Positions 6,092 to 23,670 of a stretch of DNA of 31,500 bases are shown here, piece after piece. The notes beneath the pieces were generated by a model. It was not told the origin of the DNA and did no database searches. It saw only the letters and a program-made list of their open reading frames with translations. The translations under genes and the position numbers were made by a program. The DNA is from Zestosphaera tikiterensis (GTDB lineage Archaea > Thermoproteota > Thermoprotei_A > Sulfolobales > NBVN01): contig NBVN01000008.1 of NCBI GenBank assembly GCA_003056265.1, forward strand, positions 1 to 31,500. Direction: 5' to 3'. Positions within the stretch are counted from its first letter, which is position 1; the number at the start of each line of letters is the position of its first letter.

Positions 6092-6604
6092 AAGAAGGCT
6101 GCGTGTGAGAACCTCATACACGCCTACAGCATGCTTTACGGAATCAGGGCAGTTGTGCTGAGGTACGCAAACGTAGTCGGCCCTAGGCTTAGGCATGGAG
6201 TGATCTACGACCTCCTCATGAAGCTCAGAAGGGATAGAACTAGGCTTGAGGTTCTCGGAGACGGGACGCAGGTGAGGAGCTACATATACGTAGACGATGC
6301 AGTCGACGCGACTATGATAGCCTATGAGAGGGCGGGAGAAGGCTTCAGCGCGTTCAACGTGGCAAGCGAGGACTGGATAACCGTGAGGGACGTGGTTCAG
6401 ATAATCCTGAGGGAGCTGGGCATCGAGAACATCGAGGTGGTCTACAGATCCATTATGCACGGAGTCGGCTGGCCCGGAGACATTAAGAGGATAGCGCTCA
6501 GGATAGATAGGCTGAAGGCCTTGGGCTTCAAGCCGTCAATGAACAGCGAAGAAGCCGTAGCTAAAACTGTTAAAGCACTTGCCCTTGAGTTTGAGCATGG
6601 CTAA
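6092..6604 (+). pseudogene. C-terminal fragment of a second NAD-dependent epimerase/dehydratase (Rossmann N-terminus missing)
   Basis: The frame opens right after TGA 6089-6091 with KKAACENLIHAYSMLYGIRAVVLRYANVVGPR, which lies at about the catalytic YxxxK lysine. It continues with LGDGTQVRSYIYVDDAVDA and the C-terminal substrate domain. About 130-150 N-terminal residues of a normal epimerase are absent. Confidence 0.7.
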
Positions 6605-11129: not shown

Positions 11130-12200
11130 ATGAAAATTGCGATAATGAGACGCGGATCCATTACGAGTCTTGACGGCGTTAATAGGTTCTGCGCCTATCT
11201 AGCTGAGGGGCTGAGGAAGCTGGGTCATGAGGTCTTCATAGCCTCGTGGGGCTTCTACGGCGTTGAAAGGGAGAACCTATCCAAGTATTTCGCAGAGGTT
11301 CACGGGCTCGAAGAGGAGATCCCGGTATACACCATCGAGGAGAAGCCCAGGCACGGAGGCCCCTGGGCCGAGATCCTGTTCGACTGGTGGTTTAAGGGTA
11401 GCAGGCTCCTAAAGGAGCTCGGTGCGGACGTCGTGGTTATGAACGGTGTTGCGCCTCTACGCTTCAAGCCCAAGGTTGCTGTGGCTCATGGACCTCTGGG
11501 CAGGGTTTCGAGGCTTAAAAGGCCGATTCTGAAGGCTCTCTACGGGATGTACGACTACGTGGTGTGCGTATCCAAGGCATCGGAGGAGGAGTACAAAGGG
11601 ATAACTAGGTGTAGCGAGATCATTCCGCTACCCTTCAAGACGAGCCTCTACATGCCTAAGCCCCTCGAGTACAGATCCAACATAGTGGTTCACGTAGGTA
11701 CAGCGCCTAGGAAGAATCCCCAGGTGAGTGTTGAAGCTGTTCGGATTCTGAGGGAGAGAGGCTTAGACGTGAAGTTTGTATTCGTAGGAGCCAGGAATAA
11801 TCTTATAGAAGAGTTCGCCAGGAGGTACAGCTTCGTTGAACCCCTCTTCAGCGTTGACGAGAGGACTAAGGCGGAGCTATTGTCCAGAGCGAAGGTTCTG
11901 ATCCTGCCGTCCAGCGGGGAAGCCCTCCCGTATACCACTCTTGAAGCCATGGCGAGCGGAACACCTCCAGTGGTTTCAAGTGCAGTCCCTAGCGACGTGG
12001 TTATAGACGAGTTCAACGGGGTCAGAGTGGACAGCCTTAACCCAGTCGACTATGCGAATGCGCTGGAGAAGTTGCTTAGAGAGGAAGACCTATGGCTCAA
12101 GCTATCGAGAAATGGAACCGAGTTCGTTAAGAGATTCGACCAAGTGGAGGTCGCCAGGAGGTATGAGGACGTCTTTAGGAGGCTACTCCATGAGTCCTAG
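11130..12200 (+). CDS. family 4 (GT-B) glycosyltransferase
   Basis: The N-terminus reads MKIAIMRRG...GVNRFCAYLAEGLRKLGHEV. The C-terminal part reads SSGEALPYTTLEAMASGTPPVVS (EX7E). The gene is GC-rich and lies 5 nt after the deacetylase. Confidence 0.9.
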   Translation: MKIAIMRRGSITSLDGVNRFCAYLAEGLRKLGHEVFIASWGFYGVERENLSKYFAEVHGLEEEIPVYTIEEKPRHGGPWAEILFDWWFKGSRLLKELGADVVVMNGVAPLRFKPKVAVAHGPLGRVSRLKRPILKALYGMYDYVVCVSKASEEEYKGITRCSEIIPLPFKTSLYMPKPLEYRSNIVVHVGTAPRKNPQVSVEAVRILRERGLDVKFVFVGARNNLIEEFARRYSFVEPLFSVDERTKAELLSRAKVLILPSSGEALPYTTLEAMASGTPPVVSSAVPSDVVIDEFNGVRVDSLNPVDYANALEKLLREEDLWLKLSRNGTEFVKRFDQVEVARRYEDVFRRLLHES

Positions 12201-12999
12201 GGAGGCCCTCCTAAGGGTTAGAGAAGTCGTCGAAACTTCCGGGGATGGAAGGGTTAGGCACAGCTACTACCTAGAGTTTCATATAAGGCTTCAAGCCTTG
12301 GAGCTCGTAGCTGAGTACTGCCAGGACAGGAGGGTCGTAGACTTCGGTGCGAGCCCCTTCATAACCTCGTGCGCTTTAAATTTTATGGGCTTCGAGGTTA
12401 TAGCTGTTGACTTCGACCCGGAGGAGTACAGGAGTATTGCGGAGACATGCCAAGTCCAAGCTGTTAGGGCGGATCTCGAGAGGGATAGGGTACCGGTAGG
12501 GGATGAATGGACTGACTGCGCAATCTTCTCAGAGGTCTTGGAGCACATTAACCCGTACTATGTGGGTCACGCTCTCTCAGAGATCAGCAGGGTTCTGAGG
12601 CCCGGAGGGATCCTTGTACTCACGACGCCGAACATAGCCTCACTCTTCAGGAGGATACGGCTTCTGCTGGGGATTCAGCCTCAGTACAGGCTTCACGTCC
12701 ACGAGTACACGAAGCCCGAGGTCGAAGACCTCTTGGGGAGGCATGGCTTCAGGGTCTTGAGGAGCTTCTACTCTGACGTAGACGACCTGACCTACGTAGA
12801 CGCAGAGGCCGAGGAGTACTTGGAGCTGGGCACCTATCGGCGGCTCCTACGCCTAGCCCTTAGGAGGCCTACGAGGCTGAACATCCTTAGGCTTCTCGCT
12901 TACCCCATCGTCAAAGCGTTTCCGGGTCTCAGGATGCTTATAGTCGTGGTAGCTGAGAAGGTGTCTGGTGCTGAAACCATTGGTGTGCACAGATGGTGA
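12190..12999 (+). CDS. class I SAM-dependent methyltransferase
   Basis: ATG-12190 overlaps the GT4 stop (ATGAGTCCTAG). Motifs are VVDFGASP (motif I-like), AVDFDPE, CAIFSEVLEHINP and LRPGGILVLTTPN. The tracked start at 12052 lies inside the GT4 gene and is unlikely. Confidence 0.85.
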   Translation: MSPREALLRVREVVETSGDGRVRHSYYLEFHIRLQALELVAEYCQDRRVVDFGASPFITSCALNFMGFEVIAVDFDPEEYRSIAETCQVQAVRADLERDRVPVGDEWTDCAIFSEVLEHINPYYVGHALSEISRVLRPGGILVLTTPNIASLFRRIRLLLGIQPQYRLHVHEYTKPEVEDLLGRHGFRVLRSFYSDVDDLTYVDAEAEEYLELGTYRRLLRLALRRPTRLNILRLLAYPIVKAFPGLRMLIVVVAEKVSGAETIGVHRW

Positions 13000-13204
13000 G
13001 TGGAGATCGTTGATTGCCGTGTTAAGCGCTATGCCTAATGCTATCCTCATAACTTGTGATACCGGGTTTATGCCGACTCTTCTAGAGGAATGCGAGATTT
13101 CACTACTCAATCTTTATCAAGTCCATGGATTCCGCCTCTGCACCGGGTAGAGTACTTTAAAGTAGATAAGTAGGTGAAACATCTTGAAGGAGGAAGTGTA
13201 GCTG

Positions 13205-13945
13205 GTGGTGGAAGTGTACATACATAGGGATAAGATTAAGTGTGCTATTGACCTACTGGAGAAGGGTGCTTCACAGAGGGAGATCGCTAAGGCTTGCGGC
13301 TTAAGCATGTCCCAGGTCTCAGCTATAGGTAGGGAATATGGGTACTATGTTGATGTTAAAGAGCATTTCGAGAAGCTTAAGGAGGAGAAGAAGAGGGAGT
13401 ATGAGGCTTTTAGGAATTCTATCCTCGAAGAAAAGAAGAAGCTTGAAACGGAGCTTAGAGACCTAAGTGAGAGGCTTGAGGCACTTAAAGATGAGGAGAA
13501 AGCGCTGCGGAAGAGTGTGGAGGACCTCAGGCACGTTGAGGAGTCCTTGAAGCAGGAGATCGGAACATTAGTGAATGCTTTAAAGATTGTGTGTTTTCAT
13601 TATCAGGCGTATCGTGCTGAAGCTGAGAAGCATATGGAGTCTTTAGAGAAAGCTATTGGTAGTGAGGTGTGGAAATTCCTCGAAGAGATCGAAGCCCTCA
13701 TGAGCCCTGAACTCCTCAAAGATCTTGAGGAGTTTGGGAATTCTCTCGACCGTATCGCAGTAACTAAAGAGTATAGAGAATATTTGAAAAGCAGGTTTGA
13801 GAGAGTGGCGAGTGCTTTAAGAAGTTTATTTGTTTTGCTGAATAAGGGAGGGTACTTCGTAAACTTAATGGTTTTAGCGCAACTTAGGGATCTGTGTAGC
13901 ATAGTTGATGTGCTGGAGCGTGTAAGCAAGAAAGAGACTAGGTAA
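13205..13945 (+). CDS. HTH DNA-binding protein with a long coiled-coil region; family not recognised
   Basis: GGAGG at 13189-13193 precedes GTG-13205. The N-terminus has a helix-turn-helix (GASQREIAKACGLSMSQVSAIGREYG). Heptad-like Glu/Lys/Leu-rich sequence follows (EKLKEEKKREYEAF...LETELRDLSERLEALKDEEKALRKSVEDLRHVEESLKQEI). Confidence 0.6.
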   Translation: MVEVYIHRDKIKCAIDLLEKGASQREIAKACGLSMSQVSAIGREYGYYVDVKEHFEKLKEEKKREYEAFRNSILEEKKKLETELRDLSERLEALKDEEKALRKSVEDLRHVEESLKQEIGTLVNALKIVCFHYQAYRAEAEKHMESLEKAIGSEVWKFLEEIEALMSPELLKDLEEFGNSLDRIAVTKEYREYLKSRFERVASALRSLFVLLNKGGYFVNLMVLAQLRDLCSIVDVLERVSKKETR

Positions 13946-13951
13946 GTTAGT

Positions 13952-14045
13952 GCTACATATAGATACGTCTTGCTACATCTACGCTACATCTGGATACACA
14001 GACTACATCAAAATACACCTGATACATGCTACGACAACCTTACAA
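13952..14045 (+). repeat. degenerate tandem array of about 10-nt units with core TACA(T/C), ten copies
   Basis: TAC(A/G) starts at 13954, 13964, 13974, 13985, 13995, 14004, 14014, 14023, 14030 and 14041. The spacings are 10, 10, 11, 10, 9, 10, 9, 7 and 11 nt. Six copies read TACAT and several read (G)CTACATC. Confidence 0.85.
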
Positions 14046-14096
14046 ACCGTGAGACTCCATGCCTTACGCAGACCCACCCCGCTTCATCCTCGACCA

Positions 14097-14102
14097 TTTT
14101 TT
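14097..14102 (+). terminator. oligo-T tract (T6, then ATT), a possible archaeal terminator downstream of the HTH gene and array
   Basis: CCATTTTTTATTCC is the only long T-run between 13946 and 14466. Archaeal termination typically occurs at oligo-T. Confidence 0.2.
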
Positions 14103-14260
14103 ATTCCAGTCTAGAAGTTTACTGAAGCATGCGTATATATGTAGTGATGTATCGCATAGTATTAGGCAATGCTCTTACGCGTTCAGCTCAACTATGGGGA
14201 AGAGGCCTACTGAAGGGAGGAATAAAGCAGGGCTTCCAAATAATCTCAGCCTTGAAGCCG

Positions 14261-14277
14261 TGATACATGGTGTATCA
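14261..14277. repeat. perfect dyad TGATACA-TGG-TGTATCA sharing the GATACA core of the upstream array
   Basis: Read directly from the sequence. Inverted copies of the array word also occur at 14139-14144 (ATGTAG) and 14146-14153 (GATGTATC). Confidence 0.7.
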
Positions 14278-14466
14278 GCGACTATGCAAGGACAAGTGTA
14301 GCTCACTCAGGGAAGTATAGTCCTCCTAACCGGTGGCAGGATTTACAGGAAGCCGTAAATGAGCCCTCCGGCTATGCATAGGCCTAGGCTCATGGTGTTC
14401 TCGAAGCTCTTCCGGCCCAAGGGTGGTGGAGCTGGTTTGCAATATGACGTAATCAATGAAAATAGC

Positions 14467-15210
14467 ATGCATAATAGAAAGGCCATGATTATCTTTGTCT
14501 CAGGCCTTGTAGGTGCGGGTAAGACCACTTTTGCAAGAAATCTCAAGTCTTATTTAGTATCTCAAGGTTTTAAGGTATGCATATACAGGATTAGTGCCTT
14601 TCCACTCATTTCATACGCATTCTTCAGATCGCTAGCTTGTATACTCTATGGTTGCAAAGTAGTCAAGAATTATGAAAAAATCAACATTCATCCATCAACT
14701 CTAGTTCTACTAAGAGTTAAGAGAATACCGTTTTTGACGACATTAATTGTGATTTACCTAGAAATAGTGAGTACGCTTCTAAAATATCTTGAGGTCTTTC
14801 TTCACTGTAGACGAATAAACACGATAATTATAGATGAAGGTTTAATTAATCAATTTGCGAACTATATCGAGATTCTCGGCAAGCAAAGTGCGTTACTTAT
14901 ATCCTTTATTGAAATAGTCTTTGAAAAGCTTAGAAAGATGCTTAGCTTCGATATAGACATCATCTTTATAAATATCAGGGACTACTCTGTGCTCCTAAAT
15001 CGCTGGTACATGCGTGGACATCCATTACTTACAAGCTTCATCGATCTAAAGCATCATTTTAAATACCTGAGATGTATCGAGATTTCGAAGAATATCATGC
15101 TAAAAGTGTTTAGTCAGCATATAGTCGAACTGAACACTGATGAAAAGACGCCACATGAGTTAGTACTAGAGTACCTTAGTAGCAGAGGGCGTCATTATGA
15201 TCGGCGATGA
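14467..15210 (+). CDS. P-loop nucleoside/nucleotide-kinase-like protein (thymidylate-kinase-fold-like), paralogue of 16785..17426
   Basis: Walker A is FVSGLVGAGKTTFARNL and the Walker B-like strand is NTIIIDEG. The likely start is ATG-14467 or ATG-14485 (MIIFVSG) rather than the tracked 14359. The gene is AT-rich. Confidence 0.6.
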   Translation: MHNRKAMIIFVSGLVGAGKTTFARNLKSYLVSQGFKVCIYRISAFPLISYAFFRSLACILYGCKVVKNYEKINIHPSTLVLLRVKRIPFLTTLIVIYLEIVSTLLKYLEVFLHCRRINTIIIDEGLINQFANYIEILGKQSALLISFIEIVFEKLRKMLSFDIDIIFINIRDYSVLLNRWYMRGHPLLTSFIDLKHHFKYLRCIEISKNIMLKVFSQHIVELNTDEKTPHELVLEYLSSRGRHYDRR

Positions 15211-19881: not shown

Positions 19882-20373
19882 TTATTTCAGTGATTTTGAA
19901 AGGAACTCTATAAATCTTTCAAGAGCCCTTCTGTATTTATGGTAGGTGGATTCACTTATGCTGTGTTCTTTCAAGTAATCTTCTAGGAATTCCTTTATGG
20001 TTTCATCTTTTAATTCTAAGGGGTTTATATGCTTGTCTTTAATCCATGAGGCAAACCTTCTAATAATGAATGTCCCTTTCTTAACTTTTTCTTCATTGAT
20101 GTATTTCCTCACAAGCTCTTCTACGTTGCCGATTTCAACAACTCCTGTGGGTTCTCCACTTATAGCAACTCCTAAAGATGAGGTTTCCCGACCTTTTTCA
20201 AAACCTCTTTTATATGCTTCATAATAATATGTTAGGATATTAGCCATAAGCTGGCTTGGTTCCATAGCGATTTCCTTTGAAAATTCCTCAAGCCATTCTA
20301 CTAGATGTTTCGGCAACTTAATTTCTATGGTTTTAAAGTTATGTAAGTCCTTCAAAGTTCTCAACCCTCTCAA
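19882..20373 (-). CDS. ParA partner: N-terminal ribbon-helix-helix domain fused to an integrase-type SAM-like (core-binding) domain
   Basis: It overlaps the 3' end of parA (TTG-20373 or TTG-20364). The RHH pattern is TIEIKLPKHLVEWLEEFSKEIAMEPSQLMANILTYYYEAY. The C-terminus (LKDETIKEFLEDYLKEHSISESTYHKYRRALERFIEFL) resembles the phage-integrase N-terminal SAM-like domain. There is no catalytic domain. Confidence 0.55.
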   Translation of the reverse strand: MRGLRTLKDLHNFKTIEIKLPKHLVEWLEEFSKEIAMEPSQLMANILTYYYEAYKRGFEKGRETSSLGVAISGEPTGVVEIGNVEELVRKYINEEKVKKGTFIIRRFASWIKDKHINPLELKDETIKEFLEDYLKEHSISESTYHKYRRALERFIEFLSKSLK

Positions 20374-21199
20374 GAACTTCTCTTGCTAAAGTATCTATAT
20401 TCTGCCTTAACTCGTTATTTCTCTCCATAACCCTATTTAACGGTAACTCCCACCTCCTAGGCCTATACATCAAGTCTTTAAGCTCTTCATACCTATATAT
20501 GATTGTGTTGAAGAAAGGCTTCTTATAGAAGCGCTCACGTACGGTAGGCGGTAGTTGATGGAGGAACTTCGTGAACGCGTGATCAACGCTGTTGAGGGTG
20601 TTACCACTTACTTTTCTGGTAACGTTAATCACTATAATACCTAATATCTTTAATTCCTTCTTACTCTTCATTATAACGTCCGGAAGTATATCCTTCACTA
20701 GAAGCTTAACTCCAGCAAGCGAAAGTTCCTCTAAATTCGACGGAACTAACACATAGTCTGCAGCGTATAAACCCCATATAGTCGGTGGGAAGAGCTCTGG
20801 AGGGGTATCGCATAATATGAAGTTATAGTCTCTATTTATAGCAGGCTCCATTTGAATCCTAGAGTTAATAGCGTAGGGATCCCACGACGGAATCATACCT
20901 CTATACGTATTCACTATATAGTTAAGGCCTGACGGTATGATACCCATCCTACCCCTAGTGCTGGTATCTACCTTACGTATCACGAACTTCACGCCTTGCG
21001 CCATCTCTATTATGCCATCCCTCACATTCTCAAGATCAGTTATCTTCAAAAAGAACGATGATAAATGCGACTGAGGATCTAAATCCATCAGTAGAACATT
21101 ATACCCCCGAGCAACTAAAGCATGACCGAGTAACGCGGTAAGAGTTGTTTTACCAGTGCCGCCTTTCTGGTTTGTAATAGTCAACACTTTAGGCGGCAT
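20339..21199 (-). CDS. parA: ParA/MinD-family partition ATPase
   Basis: The deviant Walker A is ITNQKGGTGKTTLTALL. Other motifs are LLMDLDPQ and ILCDTPP (Walker B region). It is 286 aa with a C-terminal extension. Confidence 0.9.
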   Translation of the reverse strand: MPPKVLTITNQKGGTGKTTLTALLGHALVARGYNVLLMDLDPQSHLSSFFLKITDLENVRDGIIEMAQGVKFVIRKVDTSTRGRMGIIPSGLNYIVNTYRGMIPSWDPYAINSRIQMEPAINRDYNFILCDTPPELFPPTIWGLYAADYVLVPSNLEELSLAGVKLLVKDILPDVIMKSKKELKILGIIVINVTRKVSGNTLNSVDHAFTKFLHQLPPTVRERFYKKPFFNTIIYRYEELKDLMYRPRRWELPLNRVMERNNELRQNIDTLAREVLERVENFEGLT

Positions 21200-21734: not shown

Positions 21735-21956
21735 ATGGCTAAAATAGTTCGTGCTAGGTACGAGAATGGTGTTTTGAGGCCTTTGGAGAGGCTTGATCTT
21801 GAGGAAGGGGAGGAGGTGAAGATAGCGATTTTACCTAAGGAGTTCCCCGAGCTCGTTGAGGAGGTGGAGGCTATGGCTAGGGAGGACGTCGACGAGGTTC
21901 TTAGGGAGGGTAGAGAGCGTTGGGTGGAGTGGTACTCGATACGAGCGTCATCATAA
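21735..21956 (+). CDS. DUF104 (AF2212-like) antitoxin of a VapC toxin
   Basis: MAKIVRARYENGVLRPLERLDLEEGEEVKIAI is the family signature. It overlaps the start of the downstream PIN gene. I prefer ATG-21735 to the tracked TTG-21720. Confidence 0.75.
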   Translation: MAKIVRARYENGVLRPLERLDLEEGEEVKIAILPKEFPELVEEVEAMAREDVDEVLREGRERWVEWYSIRASS

Positions 21957-22417
21957 AAGCGGTTCTGAAACCAGGTAAATGGCTGCCGGGAAGCGTTTAC
22001 GAGCGTGAGCTTGAGACTCATAGGAAATCAAGGCTATTGATCAGGTTGTTGAATGAGAAAGGGGTTGAGGTTCTCATACCTTTCGCCGCTCTTGTAGAGA
22101 TAGCGGGTGTGTTGACTAGGTTAGTATCGAGAGACCTGGCTATGGAGGTTGTTGAGTCGTTGAGAGCCACGAGGAGCTATCGCATAGTGTACGAGGAGGA
22201 GATTAGGGATCACGTAATTGAGACAGCCCTTAGCACCGGCTCAAGCGGTTTCAATACCTACTTCATAGCCATAGCCAAGCTCTACAACGCAACGTTGATA
22301 ACGGACGACGAGCCTATGTCCATACGCACAGAGCGCGTAGGAGTGAACACAATCCTCGTAAGGAAAACAGGTACCGAGGAACTAATAGCCAAGATCAATG
22401 AAATCAGTAGGGAGTAG
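21929..22417 (+). CDS. vapC: PIN-domain ribonuclease toxin (VapC)
   Basis: Motifs are (M)VLDTSVIIKA, LVEIAGVL and ATLITDDEP. Asn stands where the third acidic residue is expected (GFNTYFIAIA versus the usual D-A-xxx-A-x-A). The start is GTG-21929 or TTG-21920. Confidence 0.85.
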   Translation: MVLDTSVIIKAVLKPGKWLPGSVYERELETHRKSRLLIRLLNEKGVEVLIPFAALVEIAGVLTRLVSRDLAMEVVESLRATRSYRIVYEEEIRDHVIETALSTGSSGFNTYFIAIAKLYNATLITDDEPMSIRTERVGVNTILVRKTGTEELIAKINEISRE

Positions 22418-22970: not shown

Positions 22971-23246
22971 GTGGTTAAGGTTAAGACTAGCATATACGTG
23001 GATAGGGAGTTGTGGGAGAGGTTTAAGAAGTATGCGTTACGGAAGGGTGTGGAGGTTAGTAAGCTTCTTGAAGAGATGGTTAGAGACGAAATGATTGAAG
23101 AGACTTTGGATGAGGCGTTGTTGAGTATGGTTGGTTCGGAGGATTACGAGATAGATTTCAAGCCTATCAAGCCTGGAGAAGGTCTTGTAAGCGAGTTGAT
23201 TAGAGTTGCGAGGGAAGAGGGAGCTAGCGATATACGTAGACAGTAG
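22971..23246 (+). CDS. vapB: ribbon-helix-helix (CopG-like) antitoxin
   Basis: AGGAGG lies 6 nt upstream of GTG-22971. The RHH pattern is KTSIYVDRELWERFKKYALRKGVEVSKLLEEMV. It overlaps the downstream PIN gene by 41 nt. Confidence 0.8.
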   Translation: MVKVKTSIYVDRELWERFKKYALRKGVEVSKLLEEMVRDEMIEETLDEALLSMVGSEDYEIDFKPIKPGEGLVSELIRVAREEGASDIRRQ

Positions 23247-23670
23247 TGCTAGTGCTATAGTGAAGAGGTATATTGAAGAGCTGGGAAGTAATGTTGTAAG
23301 GGAGCTCTATTTAAAAGCATACTCTGGGGGTCTTCCTATCATTCAGCGTATGGAATGTTGGGGGTTAGGAGCGTTTGATAGAGCTAAAGTTATCGGTAGA
23401 GTGGATGAGGAGACATACATCACGGTTAGGAGGAGATTCCTGTTAGAGACTAGGAGGATGGCGAGGCTGAGATCCCTGCGGGTAGTCCCGTTGAGGATGG
23501 GGATCCTAGTGGAGGGCTGGAAGCTCATAGAGAAGTATCACATCTACGAAGCCGACGCTATACAACTCGCTTCAGCAAAATACGTGAATGCTTCACAGTT
23601 TCTAACAGGGGATAAGCAACTTCATGAAGTAGCTACAGAAGAGAAGCTAAATAGCGTGTATTTAAGATAG
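23206..23670 (+). CDS. vapC: PIN-domain ribonuclease toxin (VapC)
   Basis: Motifs are AIYVDSSASAIVKRYIEE, IYEADAIQLASA and FLTGDKQL. TTG-23206 is the only start upstream of the first Asp. Confidence 0.85.
   Translation: MRGKRELAIYVDSSASAIVKRYIEELGSNVVRELYLKAYSGGLPIIQRMECWGLGAFDRAKVIGRVDEETYITVRRRFLLETRRMARLRSLRVVPLRMGILVEGWKLIEKYHIYEADAIQLASAKYVNASQFLTGDKQLHEVATEEKLNSVYLR

Follow-up and report, generated by a model that had tools for sequence, protein, structure and literature searches.

What is the role of a helically phased run of short TACA words that lies directly behind a gene for a helix-turn-helix (HTH) protein, inside an archaeal cluster of glycan-biosynthesis genes? The question arises in a stretch of 31,500 nucleotides (nt), hereafter the window, which is an entire 31.5-kb contig of a metagenome-assembled genome of Zestosphaera tikiterensis (Desulfurococcales). 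The gene (13205..13945, plus strand) encodes a 246-amino-acid (aa) HTH/coiled-coil protein, and the run of words, hereafter the array, opens the 520-nt gap that follows it, by far the largest gap in the cluster. A sequence-only reading had likened such sites, iterated on one face of the helix, to those of cooperative or filament-forming DNA binders, with the upstream HTH protein as a candidate, and also to plasmid iterons and partition centromeres. We conclude, with a probability of about 0.6, that the array consists of double-stranded operator sites for the protein encoded just upstream, which is thereby the proposed binder of the repeated word. In the best reading of the related sequences, gene and array appear to have been inherited jointly as one module heading a glycan-biosynthesis operon.

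The array was read directly and by word count on the plus strand. TAC[AG] starts at 13954, 13964, 13974, 13985, 13995, 14004, 14014, 14023, 14030 and 14041, with spacings of 10, 10, 11, 10, 9, 10, 9, 7 and 11 nt, and the minus strand of 13946-14050 has no such word. These are the same ten phased starts and spacings that the sequence-only reading had listed. Its count of the repeated word TACAT had to be lowered from six copies to five, with two more copies reading TACAC, and an extra TACG at 13980 is out of phase. The repeat unit was better defined as a heptamer, G(C/A)TACA(T/C). Eight heptamers form the core array (13952..14027, plus strand, mean period 9.9 bp), starting with GCTACAT at 13952, GATACGT at 13962, GCTACAT at 13972 and GCTACAT at 13983, and continuing with GATACAC at 13993, ACTACAT at 14002, AATACAC at 14012 and GATACAT at 14021. 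Two degenerate trailing units follow on the same strand (14028..14045), namely GCTACGA at 14028-14034 and CTTACAA at 14039-14045, and the trailing unit ATTACGA of two of the related loci described below (L001 and L003) is comparable to them.

The array was set against 300 dinucleotide-shuffled versions of the window. Its longest phased TAC[AG] chain has 10 members if spacings of 7-12 nt are allowed and 8 if only 9-11 nt are allowed, whereas the corresponding chains in the shuffles had means of 2.2-2.6 and a maximum of 4, and none of the 300 matched the array. The longest such chain in the remainder of the real window has 3 members. Copies of [CA]TACA[TC] reach 7 per 75 nt in the array, against a shuffle maximum of 4. 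The array is thus non-random, as the sequence-only reading had argued. Tandem Repeats Finder did not report the array because its spacers differ, so that it is not a recent tandem duplication. It is nearly certain, in our view, that selection maintains the array as a functional element.

DNA was then recovered for eleven further distinct loci (L001-L005 and L247-L252), which together with the window make 12 loci. Heptamer clusters were found at the 3' end of the gene's homologues in 10 of the other 11, down to about 21% protein identity, and in 8 of these 10 the clusters are phased arrays. In L001-L005, with 53-68% protein identity, the array begins 5-20 nt past the stop codon, and that of L005 overlaps the last codons. 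Among the more distant loci, L248 (32% identity) has ten GCTACAY/GATACAY copies and L247 (31%) has the variant GTTACAT. The opposite strand is used in L251 (23%), with four RTGTAGC copies at a period of 10-12, and in L252 (21%), with five or six. Three scattered copies occur in L250 (31%), and L249 (29%) has no heptamers. Over the 12 loci, the density of the hexamer between stop-60 and stop+360 is 12 times that elsewhere, and no phased chain of at least four units was found elsewhere in the recovered sequences.

The sequence-only reading had named an alignment of syntenic loci as a test that could refute it, and the outcome favours the array. In an alignment of six loci, the T and A of every TAC are invariant, and conservation is 0.90 in the core columns compared to 0.76 in the spacers (p=0.003). 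Between distant loci the array is the sole similar DNA within the gap. Core, phase and position of the array are therefore conserved, and the array is linked to the gene family. [quoted passage not shown] Both orientations of the motif occur, inside single loci as well as between loci, and the array is flipped as a whole in L251 and L252, which favours recognition as double-stranded DNA over a role as RNA. The presence in 10 of 11 loci, the excess of core over spacer conservation and the strand flip all support the proposed one-face array for a cooperative or filament-forming binder, with the upstream HTH protein as candidate. The word accompanies members of the gene family at most of the related loci, and its likeliest role is thus that of a docking site for the protein itself.

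Further loci were also sought in large sequence collections. Protein-pattern scans of metagenome and genome contig collections gave no more loci; evidently neither the source contig nor hot-spring samples of the relevant kind are part of these collections. Degenerate four-unit DNA-pattern scans of the genome and the metagenome collection returned more than 119 and more than 120 loci, respectively (L008-L246). Screening with blastn and tblastn recovered neither the gene nor the flanking motifs in any of them, and they are unrelated satellites with a 10-nt unit, most of which derive from Bacteroidota and from samples rich in eukaryotes. Satellites of this period that contain TACA are common in unrelated bacterial and environmental sequence, many of them with several consecutive matches (e.g. 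L063, L077, L166 and L197).

The array does not stand alone in the gap. A second conserved motif (14081..14105, plus strand) reads GCTTCA-N4-CGA and continues into a T-rich stretch, GCTTCATCCTCGACCATTTTTTATT, that resembles an archaeal TATA box. Its form across loci is GCTTCA, about five bases, CGA or CTG, and a T-rich stretch. Nine loci have a GCTTCA-like box at stop+96 to +173, among them L248, L247 and L251 with only 23-32% protein identity, and the box takes the variant forms GCTTCT in L004 and CCTTTCA in L247. Judging from its sequence, we propose this motif as a candidate promoter core or auxiliary site. At 50-66 nt past the box, the window has three inverted heptamers (14131..14153, minus strand), for which the plus strand reads GCGTATA, ATGTAGT and ATGTATC. 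The sequence-only reading had already noticed ATGTAG at 14139-14144 and GATGTATC at 14146-14153; the third and weaker unit is at 14131-14137. L001-L005, L247, L248 and L251 likewise have between one and four inverted units, located at stop+144 to +220. The order of array, GCTTCA/T-rich box and, 40-75 nt later, inverted units is repeated in nine loci. The inverted units are arranged unit by unit (A'-B') and not as a single long inverted repeat, an arrangement that suits protein sites rather than a hairpin.

Other elements that had been grouped with the array were found at the positions originally given for them. The dyad TGATACA-TGG-TGTATCA at 14261-14277 is degenerate in L001, the closest locus keeping that segment, and TACATACAT at 13217-13225 falls inside the conserved codons Y-I-H, so that coding constraint explains it. 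The T-run at 14097-14102 is likewise in place in the window, but the oligo-T is not conserved, as L001 has GTTTCC there. An inverted heptamer in the 3' end of the gene (13894..13900, minus strand; GTGTAGC on the plus strand), about 50 nt before the stop, overlaps conserved Cys-Ser codons. It has equivalents at -50/-54 in L001 and L003 and as a GTGTAGT variant at -50 in L004, and coding constraint alone could be a sufficient explanation for it. Other GTGTAGC copies are found at 13196, just ahead of the gene start, and at 14296.

Downstream synteny is also kept. In L001, L003 and the distant L251, the next gene encodes a protein of ~340 aa (53-74% identity) and is followed by a GT4 glycosyltransferase gene, and in L248 the GT4 gene follows directly. 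At some other loci these genes have been replaced: L005 has a TnpB remnant (insertion-sequence type) at this place, L004 a methyltransferase, L002 glycosyltransferases of other kinds, and the window a P-loop gene. Neighbours are thus frequently swapped while gene and array are kept, which makes the module the stable part of the locus. A relic of the GT4 gene is found in the window (14374..14434, plus strand), where the first ~20 GT4 codons (MHRPRLMVFSKLFRPKGGGAG, RLMVFSKLFRPKGGGAG) are fused in frame to a low-GC P-loop open reading frame (ORF) at 14359-15210. Its DNA is 85-87% identical to L001 3954-4007 and L003 2441-2493. The same stretch opens an intact GT4 gene in L003, L251 and L248, and it is also a stub in L001. 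By its sequence, the relic appears to be a recombination scar at which the ancestral locus ends. The GC content is 0.52-0.56 at 11-13 kb, 0.43-0.46 in the gene and the gap, and 0.35 from 14.5 to 16.5 kb, and these steps bear out the GC/AT boundary that had been noticed at the array. The suggested link between the array and the P-loop gene did not hold, as this gene is missing from every related locus and lies beyond the recombination scar.

A few observations on these downstream genes can be added. The 5' end of the GT4 gene looks like a recurrent recombination breakpoint, coincident with the drop in GC content to 0.35. The gene of the ~340-aa protein lies just downstream of the array region (L001 2896-3960, L003 1430-2446 and L251 2219-3229), and no Pfam domain was found in its product. 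This protein is conserved even where the HTH protein is only 23% identical and is gone from the window; it may be a functional partner or a target gene of the module. The remnant at L005 1575-1967 (minus strand) is the C-terminal part of a TnpB/IS605-OrfB-like protein, convergent and about 470 nt downstream of the module, with a NADLNAAVNIA motif followed by a zinc-finger-like CxxC...H...H stretch. Its presence shows that the site just past the array accepts mobile DNA.

We next describe the protein. Its AlphaFold2 model (mean predicted local distance difference test, pLDDT, of 79.7) has a three-helix HTH at residues 8-44 (helices 8-19, 24-31 and 35-44), then a single helix of about 100 residues (51-150; pLDDT 94-97), and then a C-terminal helical bundle. 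Pfam gave weak HTH_23 and CENP-B_N matches in addition to generic coiled-coil matches. The family is small, with 16 representatives (E<1e-10) among 1.8 billion proteins, all of which except the Zestosphaera protein come from metagenomic assemblies (JGI, ENA and Logan). The HTH superposes best on resolvase, IstA-transposase and Pax domains, at 0.8-1.2 A over 36-37 residues, and HTH domains of these types read short half-sites as monomers. Foldseek searches with the whole model and with the HTH alone returned generic HTH and coiled-coil matches only, none with E<0.1, and for so small a domain as the HTH the E-values are not significant. A sequence search of the PDB with the 246-aa protein matched only a designed CAP-repeat protein and coiled coils. 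No description of this protein family or of the heptamer motif was found in the literature.

We infer that this particular protein binds the heptamers, that it oligomerises, and that a promoter lies between the two site groups; its effect could be either repression or activation. Each three-helix HTH would read one G(C/A)TACA(T/C) heptamer, and dimerisation and oligomerisation would go through the ~100-residue helix together with the C-terminal bundle. With the protein joined in this way, eight to ten heads would line up on one face along about 90 bp, and a few further heads would occupy the oppositely oriented heptamers about 100 bp beyond. The direct and inverted site groups would bracket the GCTTCA/T-rich promoter-like element, and downstream transcription would be set either by bridging of both groups or by occupancy of the inverted sites by the presumed transcription start. 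The ancestral downstream targets would be the ~340-aa protein and the GT4 glycosyltransferase. If the GCTTCA/T-rich element is an archaeal TATA-type promoter, the inverted units would be at or just past the transcription start, and the upstream array might then be a reservoir or a looping partner. Archaeal repressor sites are usually found at or just after the transcription start.

Several points weigh against this reading. The sites are assigned to the protein by adjacency alone, and they are 3' of the gene, whereas known autoregulators carry theirs at their own promoter; the single GTGTAGC near the gene start (13196) is kept among close relatives only. Two loci do not fit well, L249 being without an array and L250 having its three copies scattered. 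The TATA-like element is weak in several loci (e.g. GTTTCCAT in L001), and its distance to the inverted units varies between 40 and 75 nt. The array of the window may itself be a relic, the ancestral downstream genes being gone, and by direct reading the P-loop gene has its own putative TATA-like stretch, GAAAATAG, at about 14447-14454. Finally, the sample is small, with 12 loci, 5 of which are fairly close relatives.

As adjacency is no proof of partnership, the heptamers might be operators of another regulator encoded elsewhere, with the HTH gene merely a conserved upstream neighbour. Such a regulator would fit sites upstream of the conserved ~340-aa/GT4 genes, where local promoter control would lie, and would also fit L249, which has the gene but no array. 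However, in L001-L005, L247 and L248 the distance between stop and array stays within 5-30 nt, or the two overlap, even where the downstream genes have been replaced, and the heptamers abut or overlap the stop in L251 and L252 as well. Moreover, the array still accompanies the gene at protein identities as low as about 21%, when the rest of the gap is no longer recognisable, and we consider a regulator encoded elsewhere rather unlikely. The position of the array right past the stop codon also means that it is probably co-transcribed with the gene, and the region could act as RNA, either as a 3' untranslated region or small RNA with UACA repeats for an RNA-binding protein, or through structure formed by direct and inverted copies. 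The window does have its oligo-T at 14097-14102 after the array, and the minimum-energy fold pairs the array with the inverted units. Nevertheless, fold z-scores were no better than those of shuffles (-1.2, 0.1 and -1.2 in folds covering both halves of the gap), Rfam had no match at gathering thresholds and only two chance-level matches (E>2) in a permissive search (E up to 10), and a tRNA/tmRNA search found none. The oligo-T is not shared among the loci, the order A'-B' instead of B'-A' allows no single long stem, and in L251 and L252 the RNA word would shift from GCUACAY to RUGUAGC. A strict period of about 10 nt is a trait of duplex DNA and not of RNA, and altogether a function as RNA seems quite improbable.

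The geometry of the array also resembles that of parC, stbS and tubC (bioRxiv 10.1101/2022.04.29.490116), as would suit an integrated plasmid-like element with the array as its partition centromere or its replication iteron. The mosaic GC content and a ParA-family gene with an overlapping ribbon-helix-helix-like partner 6 kb away, which would serve such a site as ATPase and small partner, could be taken in the same sense. The ParA pair is, however, on the opposite strand with six unrelated genes between, and the 4-6 kb of downstream DNA recovered for L001, L002 and L252 do not contain it, so that the link to it drawn by the sequence-only reading is not borne out by synteny in these relatives. 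No Rep or Orc gene, origin recognition box (ORB)-type repeat or AT-rich unwinding element was found beside the array, the GC content of 0.43-0.46 across the gap leaving no AT-rich block. Replication iterons are typically 17-22 bp long, compared to units of 7 bp here. The family had no match by tblastn in plasmid (72,556 plasmids) and phage collections, a protein-pattern scan of a viral contig collection found no relatives, and all loci are chromosomal-looking glycosyltransferase or methyltransferase clusters. The comparison to plasmid iterons and partition centromeres was therefore set aside as highly improbable. Descent from a mobile element has more in its favour, the protein being in that case a domesticated IS3-OrfA-like or transposase HTH-zipper protein and the heptamers former transposase sites at element ends, with a function that is residual or in cassette exchange. 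The protein has weak matches to the N-terminal HTH and zipper of IS3 and IS21 transposases (24.6 and 21.1 bits, E about 1e-5 to 1e-4), its HTH superposes best on IstA, resolvase and Pax domains, and the module is found at GC-mosaic junctions, beside the gene-fusion scar and, in L005, the TnpB remnant. On the other hand, the family cut-offs of 160 bits are far above these scores, the protein lacks a catalytic (DDE) domain, no terminal inverted repeats, target duplications or element borders were found, and the position of the module is fixed relative to the ~340-aa/GT4 genes down to 23% protein identity, which means that it is not moving. We consider this unlikely as an account of function; it is mostly about origin and is compatible with the operator reading, and the HTH/zipper part possibly shares a remote origin with IS3 OrfA.

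Gene and array could also be a new archaeal locus-control element, in which an extended filament or loop nucleated on the 3'-adjacent array would insulate, silence or switch the swap-prone glycan cassettes, or anchor the chromosomal region. They would then be a local chromatin or architectural system and not a regulator of one promoter, by analogy with KfrA and StbA, which act so for plasmids. We consider this reading rather unlikely. Several candidate elements in the gap were rejected. The ORFs at 13950-14114, 13970-14125 and 14059-14301 are not taken as genes, since a period of 10 nt keeps no frame, indels between loci are not multiples of three, and Pfam found nothing in the ORFs of the gap; the counterpart in L002 of the 80-aa ORF has an early stop. 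An invertible promoter segment was discarded because the heptamers of L251 have the same orientation on either side of the GCTTCA box, and a C/D-box small RNA in 14140-14205 because its boxes are imperfect and it has no D'/C' pair. A scan for bacterial-type promoters and terminators was uninformative, the host being an archaeon.

Returning to the array as operator sites of the adjacent protein, we compared it to known systems. KfrA of the IncU plasmid RA3 and of the IncP-1 plasmid RK2 has, like the model of the 246-aa protein, an N-terminal HTH and a long alpha-helical coiled-coil tail. The tail of KfrA oligomerises, and short repeats in either orientation make up the operator. The 246-aa protein is not a KfrA by sequence, as it had no KfrA hit in Pfam or NCBIfam and no tblastn match in plasmids. 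KfrA is bacterial and plasmid-borne with an operator overlapping its own promoter, whereas the array here is in an archaeal chromosomal glycan cluster and has a 7-bp unit in 8-10 direct copies placed 3' of the gene, not at the gene's own promoter. Operators of the PhoB/OmpR type are 7-bp direct repeats with an 11-bp period, bound head to tail by monomeric DNA-binding domains, with several boxes upstream of a promoter. These regulators are bacterial response regulators with a winged-helix and a receiver domain; the 246-aa protein has no receiver domain, and its oligomerisation would use the coiled coil. IS3 OrfA is similar in being a small HTH protein with a zipper-like helix and sites in both orientations, and the weak profile match covers residues 14-191. 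It differs in that the score of 24.6 bits compares to a cut-off of 160, and in that no transposase partner and no delimited element accompany the gene here, which keeps a fixed position.

A similar geometry is known from plasmid systems with arrays of 5-10 short direct repeats about one helical turn apart, a trait shared by StbA/stbS and ArdK of plasmid R388, ParR/parC and TubR/tubC. [quoted passage not shown] StbA of R388 binds cooperatively to stbS, where 9-bp repeats with an 11-bp period form two sets of five, and is both a repressor and a centromere-binding protein (bioRxiv 10.1101/2022.04.29.490116). ArdK was among the Foldseek matches of the HTH, none of them significant. StbA/ArdK and ParR/TubR are plasmid partition or regulatory proteins with a PadR-like winged HTH or ribbon-helix-helix fold, and their arrays are upstream of operons. 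The locus described here shares with these centromeres the direct-repeat array at the helical turn, but differs from StbA/stbS, parC and tubC in having no partner NTPase in conserved synteny and no plasmid context. In working principle, ParR/parC and TubR/tubC are more distant analogues than KfrA and StbA/stbS. By this analogy, and with the same probability as the operator reading as a whole, the array would work like the direct-repeat operators of KfrA and StbA, with the protein being a member of neither family.

What the locus adds to these systems is a 3'-placed heptamer array on an archaeal chromosome together with an uncharacterised HTH/coiled-coil family in glycan clusters. To our knowledge, little is known on how Crenarchaeota control variable surface-glycan gene clusters, and archaeal regulators whose operators comprise multiple helically phased sites have seldom been described. 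The module offers a recognisable cis-element together with a candidate protein, and is short, self-contained and kept across hot-spring lineages. Should the protein assemble into a filament or a loop on the array, the plasmid systems of KfrA/StbA type would have a counterpart on an archaeal chromosome. In that case the array would also be a useful landmark by which the limits of glycan cassettes could be found in metagenomes.

The rest of the gap and the surrounding genes are described here for completeness. A second non-coding module (14154..14302, plus strand) contains GCTTCC-AAATAAT at 14232-14244, the dyad at 14261-14277 and GTGTAGC at 14296-14302. It is common to the window and L001, is present in fragments in L002 and is deleted from L003. 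Window and L001 are 78% identical over about 370 nt, and the lengths of the indels between them are not divisible by three. Neither strand of the module gave a significant RNA fold. The element GCTTC(C/T)-AAATAAT, which resembles a TATA box, is followed about 20 nt on by heptamers (window 14232-14277, L001 2587-2632), in the form of the dyad in the window and of degenerate copies in L001. Element and heptamers may be a second promoter/operator unit.

The array lies within a one-strand cluster at 1-19.8 kb of glycosyltransferases, epimerases, methyltransferases and one deacetylase, and its neighbours are a methyltransferase, the HTH gene, P-loop kinase-like genes and a HAD hydrolase. The gene directly upstream of the HTH gene encodes a methyltransferase of the Methyltransf_23 type both in the window (12052-12999) and in the distant L248 (76-576), and upstream synteny may thus be partly conserved as well. 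As annotated, the 12052-12999 ORF begins about 150 nt inside the preceding glycosyltransferase gene, and its true start is probably further downstream. Further upstream, an ORF of 157 aa (6131-6604) matches the C-terminal part only of NAD-dependent epimerases and coincides with a GC island of 0.52 between flanks of about 0.40; it is probably a gene fragment from a rearrangement within the glycan cluster. On the other side of the cluster, the gene of the ParA-family ATPase (286 aa, 20339-21199) is followed on the minus strand, with an overlap of 35 nt, by that of a 163-aa protein (19882-20373). The C-terminus of the 163-aa protein matches the N-terminal SAM-like domain of tyrosine recombinases, and together the two genes look like a partition or SegAB-like cassette, or like an integrase module that has decayed. 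Nearby, at 21920-22417 and 23206-23670, are two genes for PIN-domain proteins.

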